Assembly (NCBI GenBank): GCA_964408485.1
Contig: CAYOZJ010000003.1
Location: 65,290-129,289 of the forward strand
Direction: 5' to 3'
DNA from: an uncultured Gammaproteobacteria bacterium
Lineage (GTDB): Bacteria; Patescibacteriota; Microgenomatia; Levybacterales; UBA12049
DNA length: 64,000 bases
The notes under the pieces: model-generated
The model's input: the letters and a program-made list of their open reading frames with translations, nothing else
Databases searched by the model: none
Told to the model about the DNA's origin: nothing
Translations under genes and position numbers: made by a program
Part shown: positions 10,245 to 63,468 of the stretch, in pieces
Numbering within the stretch: position 1 is the first letter of the stretch
Layout of the letters: the number at the start of each line of letters is the position of its first letter

Positions 10245-10332
10245 CTTGTCATTCTGGCACTCGATTCAGTACTTGCTTCGCCGAAGCGGCGCTTTCCAGA
10301 ATCTGGATTCCTGCCTTCGCAGGAATGACACT
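10245..10332. repeat. MITE-like palindromic repeat, GTCATTC...GAATGAC family, copy R1
   Basis: Reads gtcattctggcac...ccagaatctggattcctgccttcgcaggaatgacac; nested hairpins; shares the cttcgccgaagcgg motif with copy R5. Confidence 0.6.
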
Positions 10333-10358
10333 TGTTTTTCAAGGGATAAGTTCCGGAG

Positions 10359-11555
10359 TTAGGTTTTCTGGATAATATATATTTTTCCAGCTTTATCATC
10401 TGAAACATATAAATTTCCTTTGCTGTCAAAAGTAACATCCGCTGGTCTTCCAAGTGCTGCGCCTGCAAGATTACTTTGTAAAAAGCCGGTAAGAAAATCC
10501 TCGGACCCTGTAATCGTATTTCCTTGTACAGTAAGTCGTACTACTTTAAATCCTATTGGCGTTGAGCGGTTCCAGTCTCCGTGATACGCAACAAATAAGC
10601 TTCCTTGCCAACTTTTGGGAAATTGCGAACTTTCGATAAAGGTTAATCCTAACGGTGCGGAATGAGCAGGAACTTGATAAATAGGAGCAAGAGTCTGCGA
10701 GCAGTCATAGTTGCTTTTATCAAAGTTAGTATCATGAACTTTATCTCCATAACAATTAGGCCAGCCGTAGTTTTTTCCAGATGAAAGTATATTTATCTCA
10801 TCGGGAGGAAGATTGTCTCCTAAATAATCCCGTCCCATTTCTGTGTCCCACACAGCGCCATTCGTTGGATTAAGAGCAAGAAATGCAGCATTGCGAAGTC
10901 CTGTTGCAAAAACTTTTGGACTGTCCCCGTTGGCATTGGAAATAAGAACCGATCCGCCTGTTGTTGCAGGTTCTCTACAAACATTGCAGGTAGAACCAAG
11001 AGAAACATAAAGGCTGCCATTTTTATCAAAAACAAGCGTACGGTTGTTGTGGTCATTATTTCCAGGGAGAGAAAAAAGATCCTTGTCTTTTGTTGCCAGT
11101 TGAGAATTTTCATCCCAATTGTACCTAACAACTTTTGTTGTGTCAGCGATAAAGAGTTGGCCATTGTAAAATACTAGTCCGTGAACATGTGGTTCGTTGC
11201 TAATGATTTGCTTTGCAATATCTGCGACACCATCATTATTTTTATCGGGTAGAGCATAGACATGATTTGTAGAAGGACTAGAGACAAGTAACGTACCATC
11301 TTTCGTAAATTCCATATCACGAGCATTAGGAACATCACCAAAAACATGAATGCTATACCCATCTGGTAATTTAAAGGGAATTGTTGGCAATGATCCTTTG
11401 GAAATAGTTGCAGATTGGTTAGGAGCAGGTGTTATTGTAGGGTAGGCGGGAAGTAATTGCGTGGGAATACCCGAATGAAAATAAAGGTTTGCCCCAAAAT
11501 AGATAAAAATAACTACAGCAACAAAAATTCCAAGAAATGCTGTTATGCGTTTCAC
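10359..11555 (-). CDS. PQQ-dependent soluble sugar (glucose/sorbosone) dehydrogenase-like beta-propeller protein
   Basis: N-terminal TM/signal segment, NYGWP motif, HGLVFYNGQLFIADT and other propeller-blade motifs of the GSDH family. Confidence 0.7.
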   Translation of the reverse strand: MKRITAFLGIFVAVVIFIYFGANLYFHSGIPTQLLPAYPTITPAPNQSATISKGSLPTIPFKLPDGYSIHVFGDVPNARDMEFTKDGTLLVSSPSTNHVYALPDKNNDGVADIAKQIISNEPHVHGLVFYNGQLFIADTTKVVRYNWDENSQLATKDKDLFSLPGNNDHNNRTLVFDKNGSLYVSLGSTCNVCREPATTGGSVLISNANGDSPKVFATGLRNAAFLALNPTNGAVWDTEMGRDYLGDNLPPDEINILSSGKNYGWPNCYGDKVHDTNFDKSNYDCSQTLAPIYQVPAHSAPLGLTFIESSQFPKSWQGSLFVAYHGDWNRSTPIGFKVVRLTVQGNTITGSEDFLTGFLQSNLAGAALGRPADVTFDSKGNLYVSDDKAGKIYIIQKT

Positions 11556-11587
11556 TTTCTTAGTATATCACTGGCATATAAGAAATT

Positions 11588-11596
11588 TGCTATAAT
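11588..11596 (+). promoter_or_regulatory. extended -10 element (TGcTATAAT) 6 nt upstream of the ATG; predicted leaderless transcript
   Basis: tttgctataatcgttgcATG. Confidence 0.4.
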
Positions 11597-11602
11597 CGTT
11601 GC

Positions 11603-11881
11603 ATGATTACTCTCATTGCAATTGTTGGTTTTTTGACCACAACGCTTTCCATACTGGTTAAATTAGTTGGATTCCCAGATCAAATCAGAAAGAATTTTCA
11701 AAGAAAATCCACAGAAGGAATTTCTACTGCTTTTTATATTCTCTCATTTACTGTTTATCTGCTTTGGACGTTGTATGGATTTTTACAACATGATTGGGTT
11801 GTAATGCTCGGACAAGGTTTAGGAATTATTACTACCGGAGCAATCGTTTATCAAATCTATTTGTATAAAGAAAAGAAATAA
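11603..11881 (+). CDS. SemiSWEET-like (PQ-loop / MtN3) small sugar transporter
   Basis: 92 aa, three TM helices, motif FPDQIRKNFQRKSTEGIS resembling the PQ-loop and K-S-T-E-G-I-S signature of SemiSWEETs. Confidence 0.55.
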   Translation: MITLIAIVGFLTTTLSILVKLVGFPDQIRKNFQRKSTEGISTAFYILSFTVYLLWTLYGFLQHDWVVMLGQGLGIITTGAIVYQIYLYKEKK

Positions 11882-11882
11882 T

Positions 11883-12503: not shown

Positions 12504-12515
12504 TCTTGCGCTTGC

Positions 12516-13447: not shown

Positions 13448-14266
13448 TTATTCTACTACTTTTCGTAGGCTTTCCACTTCTTTTTTTGACAATTCTCTGT
13501 ATTCTCCTCGTTTTAAACTTCCTAATTTGAGTGGACCAAAGGCAATGCGTTGTAAATCAAGAAGTTGTATTCCCATTTCTTCACACATCCGTCGAATTTG
13601 TCTATTCCGTCCTTCGTGAAGGGTTATGTCTAGGGTTGTTTTTTCCTTGTCATTCCCGCGCAGGCGGGAATCCAGATGGTCTATTTTTGTTTTAGAACCT
13701 GGATCCCGCATCAAGTGCGGGATGACACGTTGTGAGTTCGGGATGACTGTTTTAACGACAGTCACTTCTGCAGGCATTGTTATTCCATCTTCTAAAATAA
13801 CACCTATGCGAAGTTGCTCAAGTTGTCCTTTTGTTGGTTGTCCTGCAACAAGAATTCGGTACAGTTTGGGTACATGGTAGCGAGGATGAATAAGCTGATG
13901 AGTTAACTCTCCATCATTTGTTAACAAAACAAGCCCATGAGAATCTTTATCCAGTCTTCCAACAGGATAAATTCTGTAGGGAGTATCAATAAGAGAAGTC
14001 ACTGTGTCACGCGCAAATTCGTCTGCAGTTGAGGAAATAATGCCAATTGGTTTATTTAATATATAGTAAACAAAGCCAGGCTTTTGTACTTTTTCACCAT
14101 TTATCAAAACAAGTTGCTTACTACCTACCCGGATTCCAGATTCTGTTACTCGTTTGCCGTCAATAGTAACGTCATTATTTTTCAAAAATGACTTTACCCC
14201 TCGCCGGGAAATTATCCCAGCATTAGCTAAAAATTTATCCAAGCGGATTTTTATATCTTGCTGCAC
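13448..14266 (-). CDS. RluB/RsuA-family pseudouridine synthase (S4 domain plus catalytic domain) carrying a 35-aa in-frame insertion
   Basis: S4 region RLDKFLANAGIISRR, catalytic PVGRLDKDSHGLVLLTNDG, C-terminal LHEGRNRQIRRMCE; GTG start; the insertion IPNSQRVIPHLMRDPGSKTKIDHLDSRLRGNDKEK is encoded by repeat copy R2. Confidence 0.8.
   Translation of the reverse strand: MQQDIKIRLDKFLANAGIISRRGVKSFLKNNDVTIDGKRVTESGIRVGSKQLVLINGEKVQKPGFVYYILNKPIGIISSTADEFARDTVTSLIDTPYRIYPVGRLDKDSHGLVLLTNDGELTHQLIHPRYHVPKLYRILVAGQPTKGQLEQLRIGVILEDGITMPAEVTVVKTVIPNSQRVIPHLMRDPGSKTKIDHLDSRLRGNDKEKTTLDITLHEGRNRQIRRMCEEMGIQLLDLQRIAFGPLKLGSLKRGEYRELSKKEVESLRKVVE
13649..13747. repeat. MITE-like palindromic repeat copy R2, lying in-frame inside the pseudouridine synthase gene
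   Basis: Reads gtcattcccgcgcaggcgggaatccagatgg...cctggatcccgcatcaagtgcgggatgacacgttgtgagttcgggatgac; three hairpins; the insertion spans codons 175-209. Confidence 0.65.
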
Positions 14267-23449: not shown

Positions 23450-23523
23450 GGATCTGTAGTTCAGTTGGTTAGAACGTTCGATTCACATTCGAAAGGTCAG
23501 AGGTTCGAGTCCTCTCAGGTCCA
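23450..23523 (+). tRNA. tRNA-Val (anticodon CAC); CCA not encoded
   Basis: Hand-folded: acceptor GGATCTG/CAGGTCC, D-arm GTTC-AGTTGGTTA-GAAC, anticodon arm TTCGA-TTCACAT-TCGAA, T-arm AGAGG-TTCGAGT-CCTCT. Confidence 0.8.
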
Positions 23524-23529
23524 CTGAAA

Positions 23530-23563
23530 AAGTTTTTTGCCCTTGGGCAAGAAACTTTTTATT
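23530..23563 (+). terminator. rho-independent terminator-like hairpin after tRNA-Val
   Basis: agttttttgccc ttg ggcaagaaact forms a 12-bp stem with one mismatch, followed by TTTTTATT. Confidence 0.5.
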
Positions 23564-23645
23564 AGCACTTAGGACTCGAATGGCGGACTGAAGCGAAGCG
23601 TAAGGAGCCGGGGTCGCGAGGGTCGCCGCTGCGACAACTTGTGAC

Positions 23646-23665
23646 CGAGTCCTCTCAGGTCCACT
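23646..23665 (+). repeat. 20-bp perfect direct repeat of the tRNA-Val 3' end (CGAGTCCTCTCAGGTCCACT); att-like
   Basis: Identical to 23506-23525 within the tRNA; the copies are separated by the terminator hairpin and a GC-rich structured segment (23566-23640) containing a gaagcgaagcg motif. Confidence 0.65.
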
Positions 23666-23733
23666 TGTCTCAGGCTTTCCGCCGTAGTTTTAGCAAAGGA
23701 GGATTCGAGGCCTGATTGGTCCACAGAAAGCTA

Positions 23734-24303: not shown

Positions 24304-24375
24304 TCCATAAGAGTTCAGTTGGTAGAGGCTTCATTCACATTGAAGAGGTCTCAGGTTCGAGTTCTGATGGGACCA
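24304..24375 (+). tRNA. tRNA-like sequence, Val-like (CAC anticodon loop); the 5' acceptor strand cannot be paired, so this may be a pseudo or partial tRNA
   Basis: D-loop GTTCAGTTGGTAGAGG, anticodon arm CTTCA-TTCACAT-TGAAG, T-arm TCAGG-TTCGAGT-TCTGA, 3' acceptor TGGGACC-A. The stems differ from the tRNA at 23450 by compensatory changes, but there is no complementary 5' strand. Confidence 0.3.
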
Positions 24376-24377
24376 CA

Positions 24378-26114
24378 CTAATGAGTAAGAAGGTATGTAA
24401 TATCACTAACAAGTGTTTGGTAGACTGTATCAGAAATTGTGTGATTACCATTCCAAATAATAAGCTTTATTAGTAGTTCTGCAAGTTCTATTTTCTCTTG
24501 AACAATGTGGTGTTTGTCATATTGATTTTTTGCATCATTAATTTGATCAAGCAGTTCATGACAAGTATTCTTCTTGATTTGATTTTGTTGGCAAAAAGTA
24601 TTTATGTCAGTATACATATTGTCAAAAACACTCTGTTTCTTAATTGAATCTTGTTTGTCATTGGTTTTGGTGTAGTTGATGGTGAAGTTGTCGGGATTAT
24701 TCTGATTGCCAGAACCTGCAAGATCAAAAACCTGGACATTTCCTGACGTGTCATAAACGTATGCCTGCGCATCGTACGGGGTGTTAGAAGCATTAGTAAT
24801 TGTTAGATTGTAGATATCGTTTCCAGGTTGAGTTAGATAAAAAAGCTTTATTGGTAAACCGCTTAAAAGTGACGGATTTGTTGGGTTACTTAGGGGTTGT
24901 TGTACGAATTCTTCACCAACTGCGCTTCCTGAGGAATTTTTCATACTAAAGTCTAATCCCAAAGGTCCAACAAGTAAAATATAAGAAAGATCTGTGTGAG
25001 AAGGAATAAAACGTCCTAAAGTTAAAAAGGTATTATTGTATCCATCATTGAGAGTATTCCTGGAGAAATATGGGTCATTAATTGTAAAGGTTGTTCCACT
25101 TGTGCCTGTTGCAACAACAAAATGCCCAGGTTGCTCGAGAATATCTGGATGATTATTCTGTAAGTCACTGAGCAAGGTAACTTTATCTGCATTTTTTACC
25201 CTTTTATATTCCAACGCATCAGCAGTAAATCCTGGGTTATTAAAAGCAAGTTTGACAAGTTGGGTAAAACGTTGGAGTGCAAGCCAGTTAACAAGTCCAT
25301 TGCCAACATATCCGTCTTTTTGTGACTTAAGCCATGTATTAAGTGTTCCGGGATTAAGAGGGCTATTGTCTGGCATCTTGGTAATGCCGTTATATTGTAA
25401 AACCATTGCAGCAGATGTAACAGCACATCCCCAGATATTAATACTTGAATTACCTGGAGACCACTTATTTGCGCTGTCATATAATTGTGATTGCCAGGGG
25501 TTAGATGTCTGCTTAAGAGAGGGAACAGAGAGATGAATGTCAGAGATTGGAAGCGTATCAATAACCAGCATATTAGTAATTATTGTTCCGGATTTTGCCT
25601 CAAAACCAAAATATCCTCCTGTATGACCTGAATAAACTTTAGTACCGATCAATGAAGAATCTAGATAGAATGAATATGTGTCAGTGTTTTTGCAAATCTT
25701 GTAATTATGAAAACTTCCCATGCCTGGAGTATTAACTCCGAGATCAATGTCGGTAGAATTTGATGCATATGCATGCAGATGTCCATCACTTACACCTAGA
25801 GTTCCTGATGCTGCAAAACCAACCCATGATGTATAGTTTCCATCTGCGAAAAATATACCATCCCTAATATTATGTATATCTATATTTGCCGAAATACACT
25901 TCATGGTTGGGAGAGTCGTAGTGTAGAAAGCGTCAGTTCCTGTACATGTTAAACCAGATGCGCTGGGTGAACATGTACCAAATGTTTCGCTGAAACCTGA
26001 ATAGTTTAATGTAAAATCATTGGAGTATAGGGTTGCAGCTAGTGACGTTGAAGGAAAAGTAAGAAACAGAACGAATAGTAAAAGTATCTTTGGTAGCAGA
26101 TAATTTTTTTTCAC
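24378..26114 (-). CDS. secreted protein with an N-terminal ConA/LamG-like lectin domain and a central papain-like (C39-like) cysteine peptidase domain
   Basis: Signal peptide MKKNYLLPKILLLFVLFLTFPSTSLA; Cys motif WGCAVTSAAMVL typical of the C39-like peptidase fold; beta-rich Asn/Thr-rich C-terminus. Domain calls are tentative. Confidence 0.45.
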   Translation of the reverse strand: MKKNYLLPKILLLFVLFLTFPSTSLAATLYSNDFTLNYSGFSETFGTCSPSASGLTCTGTDAFYTTTLPTMKCISANIDIHNIRDGIFFADGNYTSWVGFAASGTLGVSDGHLHAYASNSTDIDLGVNTPGMGSFHNYKICKNTDTYSFYLDSSLIGTKVYSGHTGGYFGFEAKSGTIITNMLVIDTLPISDIHLSVPSLKQTSNPWQSQLYDSANKWSPGNSSINIWGCAVTSAAMVLQYNGITKMPDNSPLNPGTLNTWLKSQKDGYVGNGLVNWLALQRFTQLVKLAFNNPGFTADALEYKRVKNADKVTLLSDLQNNHPDILEQPGHFVVATGTSGTTFTINDPYFSRNTLNDGYNNTFLTLGRFIPSHTDLSYILLVGPLGLDFSMKNSSGSAVGEEFVQQPLSNPTNPSLLSGLPIKLFYLTQPGNDIYNLTITNASNTPYDAQAYVYDTSGNVQVFDLAGSGNQNNPDNFTINYTKTNDKQDSIKKQSVFDNMYTDINTFCQQNQIKKNTCHELLDQINDAKNQYDKHHIVQEKIELAELLIKLIIWNGNHTISDTVYQTLVSDITYLLTH

Positions 26115-26902
26115 AATTAAACAACTTAGTTTATATTACCATCACTTTTGTGTTTAATGTCAAGTGGTATTCATTATTGTGTAGATACTATGGATACTGT
26201 ATTATTTCCTCTATGATTAAATACCAAGGTTTATCTACATTGGAAATTCTTGAAGTTGCAAAAAATTATAATAAGTGGATTGCGGAGCAGTGTCTACAAC
26301 ATATTAAATCACCGCTTTTAGAAGTTGGGTCTGGTACTGGAAATATTAGCAAATTCTTTTTGAGTAAGAAGGGAGTGACGCTAAGCGATATTGATGCAGG
26401 ACTTGTAAAAACGTTAAAAAAGAAGTTTTCTCAGAAATCTGTATCTATTCAAAAAATAGATATTTCAAAAAAATTAACAAAAAGAAATAAATATCAGACA
26501 ATAGTTGCCATTAATGTGTTAGAGCACATCCAAGATGACAAAAAAGCAATTAAAAATATGCATGCGCTTTTACAAAAAGGAGGAAAAATAATACTTCTCG
26601 TGCCAGCTAAAAAGTTTGCTTATACAGAATTTGATAGACTTCTTGGACATCATCGCAGATACGAAAAAGAAAAGTTAAAAAAGTTAACTGAAAAATCCGG
26701 ATTTATTACAGAAAAGATTTATTACTTTAACTTTGTTGGGCTGTGGAGTTGGATACTTCGTAGTAAGATGGAAAAATCACATAGTCTAAAACCATACCAA
26801 GTTGCTATATTCGATAAAATTGTTCCATATCTAAAAGTTATAGAAAAAGTAATACCGGTTCCGGTTGGTGTATCGCTTATTCTAGTTGGAGTTAAGAAGT
26901 AA
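26090..26902 (+). CDS. class I SAM-dependent methyltransferase (true start probably near 26212)
   Basis: Motif I LLEVGSGTGNIS, motif II IVAINVLEHI, motif post-II LLQKGGKIILLVP. Confidence 0.6.
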   Translation: MVADNFFSQLNNLVYITITFVFNVKWYSLLCRYYGYCIISSMIKYQGLSTLEILEVAKNYNKWIAEQCLQHIKSPLLEVGSGTGNISKFFLSKKGVTLSDIDAGLVKTLKKKFSQKSVSIQKIDISKKLTKRNKYQTIVAINVLEHIQDDKKAIKNMHALLQKGGKIILLVPAKKFAYTEFDRLLGHHRRYEKEKLKKLTEKSGFITEKIYYFNFVGLWSWILRSKMEKSHSLKPYQVAIFDKIVPYLKVIEKVIPVPVGVSLILVGVKK

Positions 26903-27214
26903 TTATTTTAGTTTTTTAAGGAGAAAAGGAATAAGAGCTATTTGTGTGACAGTAGCTATAATTAAAAGATTTCCCATTCCACTCTGAAGACTATTTGTAT
27001 CTGTAATTATTTGTTGAATTAATTGTGTTCCATTAATTCTTTCATGTCCTCTAAAACAATCAAAAAATTGTTTGGTATTTCCTAATTGGTAGCATCTGCT
27101 TGTGACACGTGTTGTACTAGTAGTATTTTGTTTTATCCCTTCTATAGGATATCCAATAAAAAGAAACAAAAGTGGAGAAATTAAAAATAAAACAAGAAAT
27201 ATTTTTTTATACAT
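26903..27214 (-). CDS. hypothetical small membrane protein
   Basis: 103-aa ORF with N- and C-terminal hydrophobic segments. Confidence 0.25.
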   Translation of the reverse strand: MYKKIFLVLFLISPLLFLFIGYPIEGIKQNTTSTTRVTSRCYQLGNTKQFFDCFRGHERINGTQLIQQIITDTNSLQSGMGNLLIIATVTQIALIPFLLKKLK

Positions 27215-28541
27215 AATATCTTGGAATTAACACAAAAATAAGAATAAAGTAGTAATACCAAATTGCAAAATAACCAAAATATATTGCTATTTGTTCTGTC
27301 TTCTTTTTCAAGACAACAGAAAATCCTTTAATCGTAAATAGAAGTAAAGGAAGATAAATTAGAAGTGCGTCACGCCCTCCTGTTTCCCATGCTTGATGAG
27401 AATGAATTTTTCGTCCAACGTCTAATATAAAGAATAAAAGGAATAAAAAAATTGTGCTTGTAATCATAAGTTTATTTTTGTTATTCCTCCATAAGTAAAA
27501 AATACCAATGCTTGAGAAGAGTATAAAAATAACAGTGTATGTAATAAAAATTGGCGGAAAAGGAAATGCCTCATTCCAACCCAAGAATCCCGAAAAGTGC
27601 ATATAGACATGTCGTAAGTTCCAGACTGTTAATAAGATAGCTTCTGGAAGTGATACATAAATCCCTTGAGAAATAGCTGCTCCAAATGCCGGGATAGCCA
27701 TAACGGGTGTGTGATACCGAATAAAATTCAGCAGAAACCAGGGAACTTGAATGAGAAGGAATATGCTTCCAAAGAGAAGTGCGTATTTGAGGAAAAGCTT
27801 TTTATCTTTTTCTTGAAAGAAAAGATAAACAATAAAACCAGGAATAAGAATAAGTCCTGTTGCTCGAGATAAGCATGCAAGTCCTGCCACGAGACCGAGT
27901 AATACCACACTCTTAAAAGAAAGTTCAAGTTTAGCCGTTAAGTAAAAAAATACTGCTGAGAAAAAAACAACGGCAATATCCGAACTAATTCCAATGCCAG
28001 ACTGCATAAGTAAAGGATTGAGTCCAAAAAGAAGCGTAAAGGAATTTGCCATTTTTTCCTTTTTAAACAAGAAAAGAAATGTCTTATAAACAACAAAAAT
28101 TGTCGCAAAGTAAAATAATCCGGACGTAAGCCTTGTAACATAAAATTGAGTGAGAATACTTGTGTGGAATAACCGTGCAACTTGAAGAAAAACTGAGCCT
28201 ATCATGTAATAGATAGGTGGATTGTATGATTGGATTGCAAAAGGAGTGAATTGTTGCTTTTCGCTTTTTGGGTAATCTACTAGCTTTTGCATTTTACTGT
28301 TCTTTATAGCTGTAAAATTTGGAATAATTCCCGTATGCTGTACGACTTCTGCAAAAGGTTCTTGAAGCGACTCGCCGGGTTGGATATGCGTTGTGGGTTC
28401 CATAGTTAGCTTAGGATACTGAAAATACGATGTCCAGTAGATAACTTCAAAATGTGCCTGTTCATCTGGCGTTTGAAACGGAGGCAACAAAAAGAAAAAA
28501 ATAAAATAAGACAGTGCGATAAAAGCGAATACTTTTTTCAT
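27207..28541 (-). CDS. GT-C-type membrane glycosyltransferase (GT39/GT83 ArnT/PMT-like)
   Basis: First periplasmic loop PDEQAHFEVIYW resembles the DE..H/Y catalytic motif of ArnT/PMT; 11 or more TM helices. Confidence 0.5.
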   Translation of the reverse strand: MKKVFAFIALSYFIFFFLLPPFQTPDEQAHFEVIYWTSYFQYPKLTMEPTTHIQPGESLQEPFAEVVQHTGIIPNFTAIKNSKMQKLVDYPKSEKQQFTPFAIQSYNPPIYYMIGSVFLQVARLFHTSILTQFYVTRLTSGLFYFATIFVVYKTFLFLFKKEKMANSFTLLFGLNPLLMQSGIGISSDIAVVFFSAVFFYLTAKLELSFKSVVLLGLVAGLACLSRATGLILIPGFIVYLFFQEKDKKLFLKYALLFGSIFLLIQVPWFLLNFIRYHTPVMAIPAFGAAISQGIYVSLPEAILLTVWNLRHVYMHFSGFLGWNEAFPFPPIFITYTVIFILFSSIGIFYLWRNNKNKLMITSTIFLFLLFFILDVGRKIHSHQAWETGGRDALLIYLPLLLFTIKGFSVVLKKKTEQIAIYFGYFAIWYYYFILIFVLIPRYYV

Positions 28542-28542
28542 A

Positions 28543-29568: not shown

Positions 29569-29622
29569 AGAAGAAGTATAGTATATTTTAGCTTAAAAGT
29601 TGTATACTGCAGAAGCTAAAAC

Positions 29623-30441: not shown

Positions 30442-30460
30442 AAGAAAAGAATCTCAAAAT

Positions 30461-33646: not shown

Positions 33647-33713
33647 TGTTTCTAATTCAATTACAATTCATATTTAAGAATAAATCCAAGTGTATTTGCT
33701 ATAATTACAAATT

Positions 33714-37209: not shown

Positions 37210-37256
37210 ATTCCTGCCTCGGATGTATGTATACTTCAACCTAGTTAACGCTCAGT

Positions 37257-45144: not shown

Positions 45145-45145
45145 T

Positions 45146-45979: not shown

Positions 45980-46006
45980 TTAAGTGCTTGTTAGAATAAA
46001 GAAGCA

Positions 46007-46750
46007 ATGAGCATTTCTGCTGTTATCCTTACCCACAACGAAGAGAATAATATTAGTGATTGTCTAAAAAGTCTTTCTTGGTGCGATGAACAGATTGTTG
46101 TTGATGACGATTCAACAGATAAAACAATTGAGATAGCTAAAAAACATGTCGCAACTGTTTACATGCGTGGGCTTGGGGATGATTTTGCAATGCAGCGCAA
46201 TTTTGGATTGGAAAAAGCAAAATATGATTGGATATTATTTGTTGATGCAGACGAGAGAGTGACCACAACGCTTAAAGGCGAGATCCTGAAACAGATTGAG
46301 AATGACAAGGTGAATGGGTACTATATAAAACGGGAAGACACAATGTGGGGGAAAGTCTTCAAACATGGTGAGCAGGGAGAGGTTCAATTACTGAGATTGG
46401 GAAGAAAAGGAAAAGGGAAGTGGACAGGAAAAGTTCATGAGACATGGAGTATAGAAGGTCCAAAAGATAGTCTTGAAAATCCCCTTTCGCACTTCCCTCA
46501 CCCGACTCTTAAAGAGTTTCTCATAAAAATTAATTTTTATTCAACACTTCGTGCGAATGAATTGCATAATCAGGGTGTTAGAGCAAATTGGTTGTCAATT
46601 ATTGCACATCCAAAAGTAAAATTTTTTCAAGACTACTTCGTAAAGTTAGGATTTTTAGATGGGATTGAGGGATTTATCGTTGCAATGCTCATGAGCATGC
46701 ACGCATTTTTGGTGCGAGGGAAATTATGGCAACTAGACAAAAAATCATAA
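46007..46750 (+). CDS. glycosyltransferase family 2 (LPS-core/KdtX-like)
   Basis: MSISAVILTHNEENNISDCLKSL...VVDDDSTDKT...VDADERV. Confidence 0.8.
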   Translation: MSISAVILTHNEENNISDCLKSLSWCDEQIVVDDDSTDKTIEIAKKHVATVYMRGLGDDFAMQRNFGLEKAKYDWILFVDADERVTTTLKGEILKQIENDKVNGYYIKREDTMWGKVFKHGEQGEVQLLRLGRKGKGKWTGKVHETWSIEGPKDSLENPLSHFPHPTLKEFLIKINFYSTLRANELHNQGVRANWLSIIAHPKVKFFQDYFVKLGFLDGIEGFIVAMLMSMHAFLVRGKLWQLDKKS

Positions 46751-50288: not shown

Positions 50289-50325
50289 AGTTTTATTGCA
50301 TAACCAGGCGCAGGATTGTGTCTAG

Positions 50326-50398
50326 AGCCGATGGTGAGGATCGAACTCACTACCTACGCTTTACGAAAGCGCCGCTCTGCCAATTGAGCTACATCGGC
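50326..50398 (-). tRNA. tRNA-Thr (anticodon CGT); CCA not encoded
   Basis: Minus-strand fold: acceptor GCCGATG/CATCGGC, D-arm GCTC-AATTGGCA-GAGC, anticodon arm GCGCT-TTCGTAA-AGCGT, T-arm GTGAG-TTCGATC-CTCAC. Confidence 0.85.
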
Positions 50399-50456
50399 AC
50401 TTTCTTATTATATAGTATTCTACTTTTAAGATCATGTCTAGATTTTTATCTTACTC

Positions 50457-51211
50457 CCGATATGCATACCTATTCCATCTCCGAAGTGGATTAGGTTGAC
50501 ACATCGGGAATTTGATGTTTAGCTAAAGTCATGCCATATAGACAAACGGTTTTGGCAACTGGAGAGTTTTACCATATTTTTAATAGAGGTGTAGCAAGGA
50601 TGCCAACTTTTGTTACCTCTCGGGATTATAGTAGGTTTACTCAAGCACTCCAGTATTATATGAATGCGAATGCCAAACCAAAGTTCTCTGCTGCACACGA
50701 ACTATCTATTTTACATTCAGCAACAAAAAATTTAATTGATATTATTGCGTATTGTCTGATGCCAAATCATTTTCATCTATTGTTAAAACAAAAGACTGAG
50801 AATGGAATCTCTCAATATATGAAAAATATTAGCATAAGTTATACAAAATATTTCAACATTAAAAATGATAGAGTAGGTCCATTGTTTCAAGGTGCATTTA
50901 AGGCTGTTCGTATTGAAACAACTGAGCAGTTACTTCATGTGCATAGGTATATTCACATAAATCCAACAGTTGGTTTTGTAACGAAATCCTTAGAGGATTA
51001 TCCATGGTCGTCATTCCATGAGTATGCAAAGAGGAAAATTGGTTTTTGTGAGAAAGAGCTAATTCTAAGTAATTTTTCAAATCCTAAACAATATCGACAG
51101 TTTCTTTTGGATCAGGAAGATTATGGAAAACAACTTAAAGGTATACAGCATCTTCTCCTTGATCTAGAGAAATAATTCCGATGTGCGAAGCTGTTCCATC
51201 TCCGAAGTGGA
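50457..51211 (+). mobile_element. IS200/IS605-family-like minimal element: Y1 (HUH) transposase flanked by 34-bp imperfect direct repeats, each with a TTCCA-TCTCCGAAG-TGGAA hairpin
   Basis: Left repeat 50457-50490 ccgatatgcatacctattccatctccgaagtgga; right repeat 51178-51211 ccgatgtgcgaagctgttccatctccgaagtgga; both in the same orientation, as expected for IS200 left and right ends. Confidence 0.6.
50531..51175 (+). CDS. tnpA: IS200-like / REP-associated tyrosine (Y1, HUH) transposase
   Basis: HUH motif CLMPNHFHLLL, catalytic-Tyr region HVHRYIHINP, and the YPWSS motif typical of the RAYT/COG1943 group. Confidence 0.75.
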   Translation: MPYRQTVLATGEFYHIFNRGVARMPTFVTSRDYSRFTQALQYYMNANAKPKFSAAHELSILHSATKNLIDIIAYCLMPNHFHLLLKQKTENGISQYMKNISISYTKYFNIKNDRVGPLFQGAFKAVRIETTEQLLHVHRYIHINPTVGFVTKSLEDYPWSSFHEYAKRKIGFCEKELILSNFSNPKQYRQFLLDQEDYGKQLKGIQHLLLDLEK

Positions 51212-53868: not shown

Positions 53869-54987
53869 ATGCAAAATCTTTGGCAGACACTTCCTAAGCC
53901 TATTTTTTCTTTGGCTCCGATGGAGGATGTAACAGATACTGTCCTTCGCCAAATCTTTTGTATTACTGGTAAGCCAGATGTTTTCTTTACAGAGTTTACT
54001 AATGTCGATGGAATACAGTCTCAGGGTCACGACGTTGTTGCAAGGCGCCTTCAATTTACTAATACCGAACATCCAATCGTTGCACAGATTTGGGGTATGA
54101 TTCCGGAGAATTTTTATAAGACAGCAAAAGACTTAGTAGAAAGAGGATTTGATGGAATAGATATAAATATGGGGTGTCCCCAGCATGATGTAACAAGTCA
54201 TGGTGCATGTAGTGCGCTTATTAAAAATCCTTCCCTTGCTCAGGAAATAATCCAGGCCACAAAAGAGGGAGCCCATTCGACAAGTTCAGAACAAACACAA
54301 AACTTACCCGTTAGTGTTAAGACAAGAATTGGATTTAAAACAATTGCAACAGATGAATGGATAGGATTTTTACTCGGGCAAAAATTGAGTCTTATTACTG
54401 TTCATGGTCGTACAGCGGCAGAAATGTCTAAAGTTCCGGCTCATTGGGATGAAATTGGCAATGCTGTAAGGTTGAGAGATGAATTTGAAAAGAAAAACGC
54501 CCTCACCCTTGACCCTCCCGCGCTTGTCAAGCAAGCAGCCTCCCTCACTTCGTTCAGTCCGGCCCCAGAGGGCGAGGGAAAACATGGTAGTGCTTTGCAC
54601 ACACTAATAATGGGCAATGGAGATGTGCAAAGCTTAGAGGAAGCAAAAGAAAAAATTGCCACATATCATGTTGATGGCGTTATGATAGGTCGTGGAATAT
54701 TCCATAACCCATGGATTTTTGCAGGAATTGATCCCAAGACCAAATCGCTTCAGGAAAGACTTGAATTACTTAAGACTCATGTTGCGCTGTATCAAAAAAC
54801 ATGGGGAGCACAAAAATCATTCCAGATCTTAAAGAAATATTTTAAAGTGTACCTATCAGACTTTGATGGAGCAAATGAAATGAGGCAGCAATTTATGAAT
54901 ACTAACTCTTATGAGGAAGCTCTTTCCCTTGCTGACAAGTTCCTTTTGTCATCCCGGACTGCGCTGCTTCGGGGAAGCAAGTACTGA
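53869..54987 (+). CDS. dus: tRNA-dihydrouridine synthase (Dus) carrying an in-frame insertion of about 39 aa
   Basis: LAPMEDVTDTVLRQI, GIDINMGCPQ, GNGDV and GVMIGRG motifs; the inserted segment FEKKNALTLDPPALVKQAASLTSFSPAPEGEGKHGSALH is encoded by repeat copy R4. Confidence 0.85.
   Translation: MQNLWQTLPKPIFSLAPMEDVTDTVLRQIFCITGKPDVFFTEFTNVDGIQSQGHDVVARRLQFTNTEHPIVAQIWGMIPENFYKTAKDLVERGFDGIDINMGCPQHDVTSHGACSALIKNPSLAQEIIQATKEGAHSTSSEQTQNLPVSVKTRIGFKTIATDEWIGFLLGQKLSLITVHGRTAAEMSKVPAHWDEIGNAVRLRDEFEKKNALTLDPPALVKQAASLTSFSPAPEGEGKHGSALHTLIMGNGDVQSLEEAKEKIATYHVDGVMIGRGIFHNPWIFAGIDPKTKSLQERLELLKTHVALYQKTWGAQKSFQILKKYFKVYLSDFDGANEMRQQFMNTNSYEEALSLADKFLLSSRTALLRGSKY
54497..54580. repeat. palindromic repeat copy R4, in-frame inside dus
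   Basis: gccctcacccttgaccctcccgcgcttgtcaagcaagcagcctccctcacttcgttcagtccggccccagagggcgaggg has outer inverted arms CCCTCACCC/GGGCGAGGG and shares cttcacttcgtt(c/t)ag with copies R5 and R6. Confidence 0.55.
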
Positions 54988-55014
54988 GTCGAGTGATCCG
55001 GGATCAAGGAATTA

Positions 55015-55107
55015 GATTCTTCACTTCGTTCAGAATGACGAGAAGACTGGATTTCCCCCAAGGGGATTAGCTTCGCCGAAGCGGTCCCGCCCTGCGCGGG
55101 AATGACT
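55015..55107. repeat. MITE-like repeat copy R5 (composite)
   Basis: cttcacttcgttcagaatgac...gcttcgccgaagcgg...cccgccctgcgcgggaatgac combines the motifs seen in R1, R2, R4 and R6. Confidence 0.55.
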
Positions 55108-55156
55108 GTTTGTTTTTATTCTGTTACTCTAGCACTCAGATGAATGCTGTGCCAAT

Positions 55157-55185
55157 TTGGACGTTCGTGTTTTATTTGATATACT
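55157..55185 (+). promoter_or_regulatory. sigma70-like promoter TTGGAC, 17-nt spacer, TATACT, 6 nt before the nudix ATG (leaderless layout)
   Basis: TTGGACgttcgtgttttatttgaTATACTaattgtATG. Confidence 0.45.
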
Positions 55186-55191
55186 AATTGT

Positions 55192-55608
55192 ATGAAACAA
55201 GGTGTTGCTGTTGGTGCATTTATTCAAAATAGTAAAAAAGAATTTTTAGTTGTTAAGCGGTCTGACTCAGATGAGTACATGGCAGGTAAATGGGAATTAC
55301 CGGGAGGCGGTATCGAAGACGAAGAGCCTCAGGAGGGACTGACGAGAGAAGTAAAAGAAGAAACAGGTCTTGATATTCTGGCTCTGAAGCCACTTTCGGT
55401 TGATGCGTATATCTATGACAAAGGACTCGAGCCAATTCAAAGAATTGAAATTACCTTTTTATGTTCAATCAAGGCTACAGAGAAAATACATTTAAGTCCC
55501 GAACACTCTGCGTACCAGTGGATTACGCCTGATGGAGTGAATGAATTTGATTTTTCTGACTATATGCTAAATGTCATTAAAAAGTCTTTAGAAGCTCTTG
55601 AGCAATAA
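55192..55608 (+). CDS. NUDIX hydrolase
   Basis: Nudix box GKWELPGGGIEDEEPQEGLTREVKEETGL. Confidence 0.85.
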   Translation: MKQGVAVGAFIQNSKKEFLVVKRSDSDEYMAGKWELPGGGIEDEEPQEGLTREVKEETGLDILALKPLSVDAYIYDKGLEPIQRIEITFLCSIKATEKIHLSPEHSAYQWITPDGVNEFDFSDYMLNVIKKSLEALEQ

Positions 55609-55654
55609 ATTTGTTCAGAGAAATAGTCTAGCAATCGCAGTCCATGAAATTACC

Positions 55655-55730
55655 GTCCTGGCCTGTCGGCACTAAAGTGCGCAGGCAAGCTCCTTCACTT
55701 CGTTTGTCCGCTCCTTTCTCCCGCCAAGGT
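55655..55730. repeat. repeat copy R6 (ctccttcacttcgtttgtcc motif)
   Basis: Shares the cttcacttcgtt core with R4 and R5; intergenic between nudix and lexA. Confidence 0.4.
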
Positions 55731-55900
55731 GCATTTTCAAAAATAGTTGTCTTATCCAGTCAAAAGTAATGCGAAATTCTGGTTCGGTGCTTTTACTGCG
55801 CTCTAATTTAGGCAAAAGAGAAGTCTCCCATCCGTTTCCTGAAAAAGAGGGAGTAAAGCTAACAACTGTGTTTTTTAAATTTATTTCTTCCATATATTTT

Positions 55901-55957
55901 GTCATTCTGGCTTGTCCAGAATCTAGATCCTGGATGCGCTACGCTTACCAGGATGAC
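55901..55957. repeat. MITE-like repeat copy R7, immediately 3' of lexA
   Basis: gtcattctggcttgtccagaatctagatcctggatgcgctacgcttaccaggatgac: two hairpins (attctgg/ccagaat and atcctgg/ccaggat) and GTCAT/ATGAC termini; the first 37 nt are identical to R8. Confidence 0.7.
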
Positions 55958-55964
55958 GGTTAAA

Positions 55965-56531
55965 TTAATGATACTTTCTTATGACACTTACGACTACTCC
56001 ACCAATTTCCAAGGACTCACGGGGCTTGATAACAGGGTAATTTTTATTGGCAGGGACAAGCGTTACGTCGCCATATTTTTCTTGAAAGTATTTTACTGTC
56101 CACTCGCCATCTACTTGCGCTGCAACAACGTCTCCATTTCTTGGCTCACGCTCTCTTTCTATAATAACAATATCCCCTTCATGAATCCCCTCATCTATCA
56201 TAGAATCCCCCTTAACCGTTAAGGAGAAAACTGTGCCTGTTCTATTTAATAGATAGTCATAGACGTCTATTGCGTCTCGCTGCATATCTGCGACTGTTGG
56301 ATAGCCTGCTTTAATAATGCCTAAGTTGGGTATAGTAAAAAGGTTTTTAGGTACTAATTTACCATTTTCATCTTTATCCAAAACACCTATCTCGCAAAGC
56401 TTTTTTACCAAATGTTGGCTAGATGCTTTTGTTGAATAGTGAAACAAAAAAGCTATTTCCTGATAGCTCGGCATCCTTTTGTGTTGGACGAAGAATTTTC
56501 TAATTGTTTCTATAGCCTTTGTGAGATCCAT
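55965..56531 (-). CDS. lexA: LexA repressor (S24 peptidase plus winged HTH)
   Basis: GDSMIDEGIHEGDIVIIE Ser-Lys dyad region, AG cleavage-site context (IIKAGYPT), N-terminal HTH. Confidence 0.85.
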   Translation of the reverse strand: MDLTKAIETIRKFFVQHKRMPSYQEIAFLFHYSTKASSQHLVKKLCEIGVLDKDENGKLVPKNLFTIPNLGIIKAGYPTVADMQRDAIDVYDYLLNRTGTVFSLTVKGDSMIDEGIHEGDIVIIEREREPRNGDVVAAQVDGEWTVKYFQEKYGDVTLVPANKNYPVIKPRESLEIGGVVVSVIRKYH

Positions 56532-58949: not shown

Positions 58950-59029
58950 AAATATGTATTATGTATTAAGTAGTATGTATTATGTAGGAAATCGAGATGT
59001 TTAGAAATATACGTAATACTTACTACATG

Positions 59030-60469: not shown

Positions 60470-60571
60470 TCATTTGTTGCCAACCATGAATTAAGAAGTA
60501 AGAATAATGAATTATGGTTTCAAGGTACTTTATTTATAGTTTCCTTGATTCTTAACTCCTGATTCTTGATT

Positions 60572-61429
60572 CTACCCGTTACTCAGCGCTACTGCTGCCG
60601 ATGAGATATCAAGAATTTCGTTTGTAATTTTTTCCTGACGTACCTTATTGTATAACAAAGTCAGATCAGCCACAATATCCTTTGCATTATTTGTCGCATT
60701 TTGCATAGCAATCATTTGCGCTGCTTGGAATGATGCATAATTTTCTAAAAGCTGCTGAAAAATAGTCATGTCAACGTAGCGCTTGAGTACTGCGGGTAGC
60801 AATTCATCTGTTGATGGCTCAATAAGTCTGTCTCCTGAGATTTGCTTACTCTCTTCAGGTAAAATAATAGGGAGAAGTTGCGTAACGTGTGGGGTTTGGG
60901 AAAAAACACTGGCAAATTGTGTTGAAATAAGAAAAACCTTATCTACTTTACCTGCAACAAAATATTCATCAATAATTCCAGAGATAGGTGCAATCATCTC
61001 GTAATTGGGAAGGGTAGTTCCGGCATGAAAACTTGCAATAAGGTTTTTTGTTGTGGATCCTGCAATAGTCTCTATCTTTTTGCCTATCGCAACAAAATAA
61101 TTCTTATCGTCCTTATTAAATTTTAAATACTCACGGAAAATATTGGTATTTAGTCCTCCACAAAGACCTTTATCTGGTGAAATAACAATATATAAATTCT
61201 TTCCAGAGATTTGCTTTGTCCTAAGAAGTGGATGCATATCATCACTTTCTTCCTTAGGCGTTAGATTTTGAGAAAGTGTTGTTAACTTTTCAACGTATGG
61301 ACGGGAAGATAATGCTGCATGTTGGGCCCGTTTTAGCTTACTTGCTGCAATCATCTGCATGGCACGAGTTGTTTTGGAAATATTTTGCGCTGTCTTGATG
61401 CGTCGTCGTAAAGCTAGTGTACTTGGCAT
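60572..61429 (-). CDS. atpG: F1 ATP synthase gamma subunit
   Basis: LRRRIKTAQNISKTTRAMQMIAASKLKRAQ N-terminus and C-terminal helix. Confidence 0.9.
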   Translation of the reverse strand: MPSTLALRRRIKTAQNISKTTRAMQMIAASKLKRAQHAALSSRPYVEKLTTLSQNLTPKEESDDMHPLLRTKQISGKNLYIVISPDKGLCGGLNTNIFREYLKFNKDDKNYFVAIGKKIETIAGSTTKNLIASFHAGTTLPNYEMIAPISGIIDEYFVAGKVDKVFLISTQFASVFSQTPHVTQLLPIILPEESKQISGDRLIEPSTDELLPAVLKRYVDMTIFQQLLENYASFQAAQMIAMQNATNNAKDIVADLTLLYNKVRQEKITNEILDISSAAVALSNG

Positions 61430-61444
61430 AGTGTTAATAAAAAT

Positions 61445-61528
61445 GTCATTGTGAAGAGCTTGCGACGTGGCAATCTTACTTATATGAGATCCTCACGTCG
61501 GTCGCCTAGGCGACCTCCTCAGGATGAC
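61445..61528. repeat. MITE-like repeat copy R9, in the atpA-atpG intergenic region
   Basis: gtcattgtgaagagcttgcgacgtgg...cctcacgtcggtcgcctaggcgacctcctcaggatgac has GTCATT/AGGATGAC termini and an internal ggtcgcctaggcgacc palindrome. Confidence 0.6.
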
Positions 61529-61540
61529 AGACCATATTCA

Positions 61541-63061
61541 TCAATTAGAAAAAACTTTCTTAAAAGCAGCAGTTACTTTTTTTAAGTCTTCAGTTAGCTC
61601 GTCTGTCACTTTTTTACCAGATGAAAGGCGTTCTATGAGTTTTTTATCGTGGGTTTTTACGTATGCATGATATTCTTTTTCAAATTGTAAGATATTTTCT
61701 ACTTTTACATCGTCTGTAAATCCATTAGTAACAACCCAAATAGACAGTACCTCCTGTGCTTCTGTAAGAGGCTGATATTGTGACTGCTTGAGCATTTCTG
61801 TTAGCCTTTTCCCTCTTTCAAGCTGCTGCAGTGTTGCTGCGTCTAATTCTGAGCCAAATTGGGCAAAAACAGCTAATTCTCGATATTGTGCAAGTTCTAG
61901 CTTAATTCGACCAGACACAGATTTCATTGCTCCAGTTTGTGCAGCGCCGCCTACTCTGGATACTGAATTTCCAACATCAACTGCTGGTCTAATGCCAGAG
62001 TTGAAAAGATCAGACACTAAGAAAATTTGACCATCGGTAATAGAAATAACATTTGTTGGAATGTATGCGGAAATGTCATTTGCCTGGGTTTCAATAACAG
62101 GGAGAGCGGTAATAGAACCGCCACCAAGCTTATCAGAAAGTCTTACTGCTCGTTCCAAAAGTCGTGAATGAAGATAGAAAACATCTCCCGGGTATGCTTC
62201 TCGTCCTGCAGGGCGTTTTAAAACAAGGGACAAATTTCTCCATGCCCATGCATGTTTGGTGAGATCGTCATAGACAATAAGGACATCTTCACCCTTTTCC
62301 ATAAAGTATTCAGCAATAGCAACACCCGCATATGGAGCCAAGTATTGAAGGGATGCAGGATCTGCTGCTCCTGCATTAACAATAATTGTGTAATCAAGAG
62401 CTCCTGTTTCTTTAAGTTTTTCAACAACTTGTGCAACGGTTGATTGTTTTTGTCCAATTGCAACATAGACACAGAGTACTCTTTTGCCGCCTTCTTTTTC
62501 TGCATTTTTTTGATTAATGATCGTATCAATTGCAACGGCAGTTTTTCCAAGACCGCGGTCTCCAATAATAAGCTCTCTTTGGCCTCGTCCAACTGGAATA
62601 AGTGAGTCAATTGCTTTAATACCGGTCTTTAAAGGCTTATCAACAGGTTGTCTATCAATAACACCGGCAGCAATTCTTTCAAGTGCCATATCTTTCCCTT
62701 TTTTAACCTCTCCCTTACCATCGAGTGCTTTTCCAACTGGGTTAATAACACGGCCTAGTAAGTCTTCGTGCGCTTTAATAGTAAGAAGTTGACCTGTTGT
62801 TTTGACTTGATGTCCTTCGGTCAAGTTGTCTGATCTGTCCAAAAGGACAATAGAAACACTGTCTTCGTCTAAGTTAAGAATAAGTCCAGGAGTACCATCT
62901 TGAAAAACAACTTGTTCTCCCATTTGTGCTTTGGAAAGACCGGATGCAACGACGACATTATCGCCAATGGATTCAACAATGCCAACATTTTGTGCTTTAC
63001 CACTTGTTTGGAAAGAGTCCAGTTTATTTTCTAAGTTTTTTAAAATATCTTCACTTTTCAT
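61541..63061 (-). CDS. atpA: F1 ATP synthase alpha subunit
   Basis: Walker A GDRGLGKTA, length 506 aa. Confidence 0.95.
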   Translation of the reverse strand: MKSEDILKNLENKLDSFQTSGKAQNVGIVESIGDNVVVASGLSKAQMGEQVVFQDGTPGLILNLDEDSVSIVLLDRSDNLTEGHQVKTTGQLLTIKAHEDLLGRVINPVGKALDGKGEVKKGKDMALERIAAGVIDRQPVDKPLKTGIKAIDSLIPVGRGQRELIIGDRGLGKTAVAIDTIINQKNAEKEGGKRVLCVYVAIGQKQSTVAQVVEKLKETGALDYTIIVNAGAADPASLQYLAPYAGVAIAEYFMEKGEDVLIVYDDLTKHAWAWRNLSLVLKRPAGREAYPGDVFYLHSRLLERAVRLSDKLGGGSITALPVIETQANDISAYIPTNVISITDGQIFLVSDLFNSGIRPAVDVGNSVSRVGGAAQTGAMKSVSGRIKLELAQYRELAVFAQFGSELDAATLQQLERGKRLTEMLKQSQYQPLTEAQEVLSIWVVTNGFTDDVKVENILQFEKEYHAYVKTHDKKLIERLSSGKKVTDELTEDLKKVTAAFKKVFSN

Positions 63062-63390
63062 AGGCTTTGAATAAATTCATCCAAACTATTTTTAAGACTT
63101 ATGTCATATATCATGTCATTATCAATAATTTTTGCTCCCAGAAGAAGAGATGTATCTTCAACAACGACAACACTTTTTTTTGTTTTGCCTAACAATGCTT
63201 TATTATAAAGCCTACCATCTGGTAACACAAGAGAAATCGTGCGGGATTTCTCGGCAAGCTTAAGACCTCGTACATACAACTTCAAATCTGCACGTGATAG
63301 AAGAGTTGCAATTTTACTTACCCGTTTATCATCGAGTTTGTCTTTTGTGTAGCTTACCTGTACCAACTGACTAATTTGTTTTTTGTTCAT
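63058..63390 (-). CDS. atpH: F1 ATP synthase delta (OSCP) subunit, short form
   Basis: Position between atpF and atpA; 110 aa with a C-terminal LLLGAKIIDNDMIYDISL pattern; shorter than the canonical ~180 aa. Confidence 0.55.
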   Translation of the reverse strand: MNKKQISQLVQVSYTKDKLDDKRVSKIATLLSRADLKLYVRGLKLAEKSRTISLVLPDGRLYNKALLGKTKKSVVVVEDTSLLLGAKIIDNDMIYDISLKNSLDEFIQSL

Positions 63391-63399
63391 ACTTAAAGT

Positions 63400-63468
63400 G
63401 TCATTCTGGCTTGTCCAGAATCTAGATCCTGGATGCCTCCACGCTTCGCTCTGAGTTACCAGGATGAC
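63400..63468. repeat. MITE-like repeat copy R8, in the atpF-atpH intergenic region
   Basis: gtcattctggcttgtccagaatctagatcctggatgcctccacgcttcgctctgagttaccaggatgac is near-identical to R7, with an extra cacgcttcgctctgag segment. Confidence 0.7.

Follow-up and report, generated by a model that had tools for sequence, protein, structure and literature searches.

The stretch of DNA described here, a contig segment of 64,000 nt (CAYOZJ010000003.1, positions 65,290 to 129,289; hereafter the window), contains at least 12 short hairpin units, most of which are paired head-to-head with their tags outward. These repeats are regarded, with a probability of roughly 0.85, as members of the superfamily of CGTC-tagged repetitive extragenic palindromes (REPs), also known as dRS3 or Neisseria transformation sequence (NTS) in Neisseria, as the Rickettsia palindromic elements (RPEs) RPE-4 and RPE-6, and as the Ssn-related motif (SRM). 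The assignment follows from the statistics and anatomy of the units, from their match to the NTS and SRM sequences, and from the definition of the superfamily, with families CGTC-1 to CGTC-4, by Di Nocera, De Gregorio and Rocco in 2013 (PMC3733652). The names of homologues of the window genes point to Patescibacteria/Microgenomates, in agreement with a preliminary description of the window that had spoken of a genome of the candidate phyla radiation (CPR). CGTC-tagged REPs, or SRMs, in the CPR add a host lineage to a family already described across bacteria and are no novel kind of element. The idea of a new or genome-specific family had to be given up, as the repeats belong to this known group, of which in-frame copies are also documented (PMC3733652, PMC11893778).

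Structure of the repeat unit

Each unit consists of an unpaired (C/T)GTC tag, a stem of 7-8 bp starting with AT, a loop of 4-5 nt or one with extra 'cargo', and a C-Y-R-G tail. Strict units were defined as GTCAT with a perfect 7-bp stem, a loop of up to 60 nt and a following C, and were counted against 200 dinucleotide shuffles as control. The window holds nine, whereas the shuffled sequences average 0.135 and never exceed 2. A relaxed definition returned 11 units, one of them probably spurious (shuffle mean 0.53). Read by eye, the tag is TGTC in eight of 12 units, CGTC in three and AGTC in one; the C-Y-R-G tail is present in 8/9 strict units. All stems start with AT and are perfect over 7-8 bp (ATTCCCGC, ATTCCTGC, ATCCCGCA, ATCCCGGA, ATTCTGG and ATCCTGG). 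Loops of 4-5 nt occur in five units (GCAG, CTTC, TCAAG and, twice, CTTGT), the others being 11, 14, 26, 38 and 38 nt long.

Six tag-outward dimers are present (R1, R2, R4+R5a, R7, R8 and R9). A palindromic tetranucleotide in the tail is often common to the two units of a pair, namely CTAG in R7 and R8 and CTGG/CCAG in R1. Head-to-head pairing makes a pair resemble one element with GTCAT...ATGAC ends and interchangeable interiors, and it was as such an element of 55-100 bp that the repeats had first been described. Copies with these ends are real, but the true repeating unit is the tagged hairpin, because 16 perfect hairpins with an AT(T/C)C-initiated stem, collected with their flanks ignored, show a clean split: nine carry both GTC and the complementary tail, and seven carry neither. 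The 'element' formed by R4 and R5 is a cluster of three units and not a pair.

When folded as single-stranded DNA, R7 (z -4.96), R2 (z -4.22) and R9 (z -3.69) are far better than shuffled sequences. Scores are moderate for R5 (-2.64), R1 (-2.18), R4 (-1.87) and R8 (-1.55), and weak, with no significance, for R6 (-0.56) and for an insert within the Dus gene (-0.84). Interior modules recur as well: CTTCGCCGAAGCGG has three copies with up to two mismatches (0.07 expected) and CTTCACTTCGTT has three with up to one mismatch (0.30 expected). The identity of R7 and R8, previously given as 37 nt, extends over 38 nt (55900-55937 and 63399-63436). Read as its reverse complement, the 38-nt interior of R1 matches that of R4 (84% over 45 nt, with a 35-nt core at 91%).

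The module of 36-38 nt common to R1 and R4 (10258-10302 and 54951-54995) holds a small hairpin of its own, GCTTCGCCGAAGC, and recurs in part at 55071-55084. Its orientation is opposite in the two host loops, those of R1a (stem ATTCTGG) and R4 (stem ATCCCGGA). This module suggests that a second, very small element may use hairpin loops as sites of insertion.

Match to the published family

A close match to a published sequence is at 13648-13675, where 27 of 28 positions equal the 28-nt NTS (CGTCATTCCCGCGMAVGCGGGAATCYRG), inside the tolerance of one mismatch used by the authors of that name (PMC11893778). The 24-mer at 13649-13672 (GTCATTCCCGCGCAGGCGGGAATC) includes the Neisseria dRS3 consensus ATTCCC-N8-GGGAAT (PMC1797815), which is exact at 13652-13671. 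The family was renamed NTS or SRM in 2025, with the SRM pattern HGTCWYN(0-2)YYVSBRHN(0-5)WNVSBRGN(0-2)RNCYNB (PMC11893778). This pattern has three matches in the window, at 13648-13675 (plus strand), 13699-13727 (minus) and 55081-55107 (minus), with a shuffle mean of 0.16; the remaining units fail it by one stem base. An Rfam scan of the window at the gathering threshold returned two tRNAs only.

The published CGTC REP unit has an unpaired tag, CGTC or often TGTC (variants TGTC, CCTC), at one end of a palindrome. Its stem of 8-9 bp has complementary A and T at the first two positions, its loop is 4-5 nt long, with other lengths also on record, and its 3-base tail is conserved. Head-to-head dimers with variable spacers predominate, the sites are located just downstream of open reading frames (ORFs), and intragenic dimers, inserted in frame, code for 20-30 aa (all PMC3733652). 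The dRS3 repeat was equated with CGTC-1, and the Rickettsia conorii repeats RPE-6 and RPE-4 with CGTC-1 and CGTC-4, respectively (PMC3733652). The initial comparison of the window repeats with REP and RPE palindromes thus stands, since RPE-4 and RPE-6 are classed in the same superfamily. Patescibacteria/CPR are absent from the five host phyla named in the 2013 study (PMC3733652), and the SRM paper likewise names no CPR host (PMC11893778). Literature searches for REP-like repeats in the CPR turned up no relevant paper.

Copies in the window

All copies of the preliminary description were found again, at the coordinates given there or no more than 3 nt away. Their contexts, recognized from the start, are intergenic spacers, gene ends, the ATP synthase operon and, in frame, the coding sequence of enzyme genes. 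R1 (10247-10330) is a head-to-head dimer between a YkuD gene (9445-10200, minus strand) and a GSDH-like gene (10359-11555, minus), at a position that is a synteny breakpoint. Its unit a (10248-10303, plus) has the stem ATTCTGG and a 38-nt loop, and unit b (10306-10329, minus) is TGTCATTCCTGCGAAGGCAGGAATCCAG; a central CTGG is common to both tails.

The largest group in the window is the three-unit cluster at 54947-55107. R4 (54947-55005, plus), which had been listed as a related form and proved to be a tagged unit, has ATCCCGGA as its stem, and its loop of 38 nt reads as the reverse complement of that of R1a. R5a (55015-55040, minus; CGTCATTCTGAACGAAGTGAAGAATC) has a 5-bp stem and stands head-to-head with R4 over a 9-nt spacer. 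R5b (55081-55107, minus; AGTCATTCCCGCGCAGGGCGGGACCGC), which fits the SRM pattern, is preceded by two small hairpins including GCTTCGCCGAAGC. R6 (55640-55720, no strand assigned) is GC-rich and carries the 12-mer CTTCACTTCGTT, but shows neither a tag nor a significant fold. It may be a decayed copy; its membership in the family, also proposed earlier, is unproven, as only a fragment of 12-15 nt is common to R6 and R5.

R7 (55900-55958) is a dimer directly downstream of an S24 peptidase gene (55965-56531, minus). Its units are TGTCATTCTGGCTTGTCCAGAATCTAG (plus) and CGTCATCCTGG-N14-CCAGGATCTAG (minus), with a central CTAG common to both, and the whole reads GTC-ATTCTGG-cttgt-CCAGAAT-CTAG-ATCCTGG-N14-CCAGGAT-GAC. 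Two further dimers are part of the ATP synthase operon. R9 (61444-61529) is located between atpA (61541-63061, minus) and atpG (60572-61429, minus) and joins a unit of the GTCATTG...CAATC type to one of the GTCATCCTGAGG type. R8 (63399-63469) fills the spacer between atpF and atpH; its first 38 nt are those of R7, and its second unit has a loop of 26 nt.

The ORF in the position of ATP synthase subunit delta (63058-63390, 110 aa) has no Pfam or NCBIfam match, and it has the same length in two of the syntenic relatives described below (L247 and L249). Adjacent to Dus is a NUDIX gene (55192-55608, 138 aa) that differs from the one of 194 aa at that position in L247 and L248. R4/R5 and R6 bracket this swapped gene (window 54988-55720), an arrangement that resembles the repeat-flanked gene replacement of the Neisseria intergenic mosaic element (NIME) regions.

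Insertions in protein genes

The relatives used for comparison are syntenic either on the RluB side of the window (L243-L246) or on the atp/Dus side (L247-L249). Insertions had been claimed in frame in two conserved enzyme genes, and both are real. The first is located in an RluB-like pseudouridine synthase gene (13448-14266, minus), where 99 nt (33 codons, 13649-13747) are made up of the dimer R2 and a remnant of an older unit. R2 (13648-13727) consists of unit a (13648-13675, plus; TGTCATTCCCGCGCAGGCGGGAATCCAG), the near-exact NTS described above, and unit b (13699-13727, minus), which is separated from it by an AT-rich spacer of 23 nt. The remnant (13728-13747, minus; GTCATCCCGAACTCACAACGT) shows homology to the initial 12 nt of the inserts that L243 and L244 have at this codon. 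At protein level the insertion covers residues of about 174-206 and lies in the loop before the HEGRNRQIRRM motif, extra in comparison with most homologues and with the RluF structure.

At this codon L243 has 57 nt, L244 about 60 nt, L245 a remnant of 24 nt, and L246 nothing. The inserts of the window, L243 and L244 start with GTCATC(C/T)CGAA, and the remnant in L245 with GTCCTGCCG. The site looks old because the inserts at the same codon share their start. In the window lineage a newer NTS-type dimer looks to have replaced most of the older dimer, leaving a 21-nt remnant, as judged from the aligned inserts.

The second insertion, in the Dus gene (53869-54987, plus), is 105 nt long (54496-54600, plus; 35 codons, 60% GC) and in frame. 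It is missing from the Dus of L247, and the Dus proteins of L248 and L249 are 45-55 residues shorter; solved Dus structures have 4-12 residues over this stretch, compared with 44-54 in the window protein. The insert shares CTCACTTCGTTCAG with unit R5a but has no GTCAT/ATGAC tags; it is real as an in-frame insertion, and its membership in the repeat family is unproven. Unit R4 supplies the last 12 codons of Dus (SSRTALLRGSKY) and its stop codon. The catalytic motifs, GRLD in the RluB-like synthase and GCP in Dus, are intact despite the inserts. Relative to L247, Dus has a second lineage-specific insertion of eight residues, HSTSSEQT (window 54274-54297, approximately).

A further in-frame copy is present, in L243 only, in the isoleucyl-tRNA synthetase (IleRS) gene, the product of which is 88% identical to that of the window. 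It consists of one CGTC unit (L243 5059-5081) read as ADSGQARMT; at this position the window IleRS has an unrelated sequence of the same length.

Turnover among relatives

The sites on the atp/Dus side differ in their content from one relative to the next. Between atpF and atpH, where the window has R8, L247 has a dimer of different units and L249 has a spacer of 2 nt; L248 does not cover this site. Between atpA and atpG, the position of R9, both L247 and L248 have a dimer of the GTCATTGCGAG type, one unit of which, of the GTCATTG...CAATC type, is homologous to that of R9, and L249 is empty. Downstream of the S24 gene, where the window has R7, L247 and L248 are empty, and L249 has the same dimer type in opposite orientation. 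L247 also carries a head-to-head dimer between atpD and atpC (L247 12282-12343), whose right unit TGTCATTCCTGCGAAGGCAGGAATC is identical to R1b of the window (10306-10330, minus); no such dimer is present in the atpD-atpC spacer of the window (58950-59029). Filled and empty sites, flipped orientations and the replacement of units at fixed sites show that the elements turn over, and the mobility supposed earlier is supported by this gain, loss and replacement. Target-site duplications were looked for by comparing filled with empty sites in the relatives, and none were found; the elements abut stop codons.

Distribution in other genomes

In species-representative genomes, which belong to many phyla, the R7/R8 stem type is present at no fewer than 119 loci; at least 17 of these are from the CPR. 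Listed hosts outside the CPR include Acidobacteriaceae, Nitrospirota, Dehalococcoidia, Methylotenera, Gammaproteobacteria, Flavobacteriia and one contig of a Marine Group II archaeon. The CPR hosts listed are Levy-, Davies-, Shapiro-, Roizman-, Howlett-, Berkel-, Peri-, Parcu- and Saccharibacteria, WWE3 and Kazan, and head-to-head dimers recur in these loci. In viral contigs the degenerate unit pattern is present at a minimum of 120 loci. Among these viral matches listed, the exact 24-mer GTCATTCCCGCGCAGGCGGGAATC occurs 38 times. In 140 related units from other genomes, GTC is preceded by C or T in 128 cases, and loop variants track lineage. The exact window unit GTCATTCTGGCTTGTCCAGAATC (loop CTTGT) is found, again among the matches listed, in Nitrospirota/Thermodesulfovibrionales and at six CPR loci (Levybacteria, Daviesbacteria, Howlettbacteria, Berkelbacteria and two unclassified Patescibacteria). 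A metagenome scan with a 33-mer spanning both units returned 3 loci only.

Cognate enzyme and alternative explanations

The repeats encode nothing themselves and are inserted directly behind stop codons, at synteny breakpoints, or in frame in tolerant, probably surface-exposed loops of proteins, where a copy can persist only if it is free of stops and its length is a multiple of three. Spread and turnover would proceed through single-stranded DNA hairpins that a sequence-specific enzyme recognizes in trans; the published cognate is SsnA. When transcribed, the copies probably have a further role as RNA hairpins, stabilizing upstream segments of mRNA, for example in the atp operon. SsnA is a single-domain GIY-YIG endonuclease of roughly 94 aa that binds and cuts the motif only as single-stranded DNA; binding depends above all on the C that follows the palindrome, and the three bases that precede it are critical for cutting (PMC11893778). 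Both determinants, GTC before and C after the palindrome, are invariant in the window units. By the criterion drawn from the same work, a host genome would carry a single-domain GIY-YIG (Ssn) gene of the cd10448 type, as a rule with the motif at its flanks (PMC11893778), and Ssn-type genes are situated directly beside such hairpins in three loci outside the CPR (L004, L172, L187).

Several points weigh against the assignment to the CGTC superfamily. To our knowledge, nobody has yet demonstrated by experiment how CGTC REPs are copied. At 7 bp, the shorter stems fall below the published 8-9 bp by one base, and loops of 14-38 nt, longer than the 4-5 nt typical of the family, occur in half of the units. 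No GIY-YIG/Ssn gene was found in the 64-kb window with a crude GIY-YIG regular expression and jackhmmer on all ORFs, nor in the roughly 250 kb (own tally) of CPR DNA inspected, which comprised pattern-selected loci searched by jackhmmer and the syntenic relatives, covered through precomputed Pfam gene tables only. Bertels and Rainey attributed the same Neisseria sequence, as a 21-mer, to a Group 2 REP-associated tyrosine transposase (RAYT). The literature on the cognate enzyme is divided between Ssn and RAYT.

This attribution also bears on the explanation next in rank, by which the hairpin pairs are REPINs, paired REPs copied by a RAYT, here the RAYT-like Y1 tyrosine transposase of the window (50531-51175, within a region at 50452-51211, plus), whose gene adjoins a tRNA-Thr gene (50325-50398, minus). 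The product matches Pfam Y1_Tnp with 37 bits, and its best NCBIfam match is the REP-associated tyrosine transposase, although the score of 53.8 bits is below the cut-off of 80. Related Y1 genes are located within 8 kb of CGTC-type hairpins in L122, L135, L156 and L241. Proteins of this family are encoded nearly throughout the Microgenomates, with more than 4000 homologues. The sequences are about 50-55% identical to the query, and nearly every listed one is a 90%-identity cluster of its own on 1-2 contigs; this pattern is read as RAYT-like domestication and not as a multi-copy insertion sequence. Against this explanation, the hairpin at the flanks of the gene is a different one. The gene is bounded by direct repeats of 39 nt (50452-50490 and 51173-51211), each with the hairpin TTCCATCTCCGAAGTGGA, which within the window is found only at these two ends; the end hairpins have the same, direct orientation, a feature also of IS200/IS605 ends. 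Homologues in L135, L250 and L251 have the same type of end hairpin, in the conserved form CAYCYCCRANGTG, and no CGTC units are present in L250 and L251 although both carry the Y1 gene. The window tag is GTC and not the GTAG of the RAYT type, and Di Nocera et al. stated that RAYTs are never flanked by CGTC units (PMC3733652). Copying of the pairs by this RAYT-like enzyme is thus held to be quite unlikely, and the Y1 gene is a candidate trans-acting enzyme that is probably not the cognate one.

A RAYT as cognate enzyme was rejected as leading explanation after the flanks of seven homologues had been compared. The Y1 gene is missing at the orthologous site of L247 and L248. An unlikely but conceivable scenario is that the CGTC hairpins of Patescibacteria persist and turn over without Ssn, through the near-ubiquitous single-copy Y1 or another partner. 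In the same speculative vein, the sharing of GTCATTCTGGCTTGTCCAGAATC between several CPR phyla and Nitrospirota/Thermodesulfovibrionales may reflect exchange of repeats and enzymes between ultra-small episymbionts and co-resident bacteria.

It is very improbable that the hairpins arose in place as host-selected cis-regulatory structures (intrinsic terminators, attenuators or mRNA stabilizers) and are not mobile DNA. Most copies are a few nt from an upstream stop codon in co-directional strings of genes (atpF-atpH, atpA-atpG, after the S24 gene), and they fold well. However, copies are also found in frame within coding regions, no T-tract follows the hairpins, the same operon junctions are empty in close relatives, and identical sequences of 23-38 nt are present at unrelated loci and in unrelated phyla. 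A secondary role as RNA is compatible with the explanation as CGTC REPs. Scarcely credible are classical miniature inverted-repeat transposable elements (MITEs), that is, deletion derivatives of insertion sequences moved by a DDE transposase through terminal inverted repeats with target-site duplication, a label suggested by several copies of 57-99 nt with superficially inverted ends (GTCATTC...GAATGAC), since the 'terminal inverted repeat' of 7-10 nt is the tag plus stem of two opposed, independent units that also occur singly (R5b, the L243 IleRS), filled sites show no flank duplication relative to empty ones, the window has no matching full-length insertion sequence, and the unit sequences are common to several phyla.

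Other features of the window

Within 23450-23685, the tRNA-Val gene is followed by a 34-nt palindrome, a 115-nt stretch with 63% GC, and 20 nt that repeat the 3' end of the tRNA exactly (23506-23525 and 23646-23665). A third tRNA-like 3' half is present at 24333-24376. These features may be scars of integration at the tRNA. The region 26000-46000 has a GC content of 31-37%, compared with 38-42% in the rest of the window, and contains duplicated glycosyltransferase-like segments (29724-29788 and 46087-46151; 41117-41171 and 43306-43360). It may be an island for cell-envelope glycosylation.

Significance

With these repeats, a pan-bacterial family of hairpin repeats now reaches into a streamlined CPR genome; work of 2025 showed that the family is the target of a single-strand DNA nuclease that looks programmable. 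Even such a genome tolerates hairpin DNA in core genes (RluB-like, Dus, and the IleRS of a relative) and in the ATP synthase operon. Taken together, the sites in relatives, whether filled, empty, flipped or replaced in part, form a compact natural data set on the turnover of repeats. The repeats also give rise to spurious peptides (VIPxx...RGND) in predicted CPR proteins and probably cause breaks in assemblies.

Comparison with known systems

MITEs have terminal inverted repeats of 15-30 bp and target-site duplications, whereas the shared ends in the window are 7-10 nt long, come from separate hairpins and show no duplication. Like the window repeats, the Rickettsia RPEs are inserted in frame into genes of conserved enzymes without disrupting them. 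Kinship with the window units is derived from the published equation of RPE-4 and RPE-6 with CGTC-4 and CGTC-1 only, and RPE-1 and other long RPEs, at 100-150 bp and with unrelated sequence, are unlike them. REPIN-RAYT systems and the enterobacterial REPs with their bacterial interspersed mosaic elements likewise consist of inverted pairs of tagged hairpins with a spacer, which are non-coding, persistent, mostly inherited vertically and processed as single-stranded DNA. The window differs from REPIN-RAYT systems in its GTC tag, in place of GTAG, and in a RAYT-like gene that is not flanked by the dispersed units.

In Neisseria, NIMEs are arrays of dRS3 separated by RS modules of 50-150 bp (PMC1797815). 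The window shares with them the exact ATTCCC-N8-GGGAAT of one unit, variable 'RS-like' modules between units and variable gene content nearby. Unlike NIMEs, it has no Ssn gene in view and no long arrays, and most units use stems other than that of dRS3 (ATTCTGG, ATCCTGG, ATCCCGGA); one exact dRS3 and near variants of it are present. From the published CGTC REPs the window repeats differ in their Patescibacteria/CPR host, in stems of 7-8 bp, and in many loops of 14-38 nt with small modules of their own. They agree with them in the CGTC/TGTC tag, the AT-starting stem, the 3-base tail, the head-to-head dimers, the sites downstream of ORFs and the in-frame dimers, as well as in having no flanking transposase gene and, in half of the units, loops of 4-5 nt.

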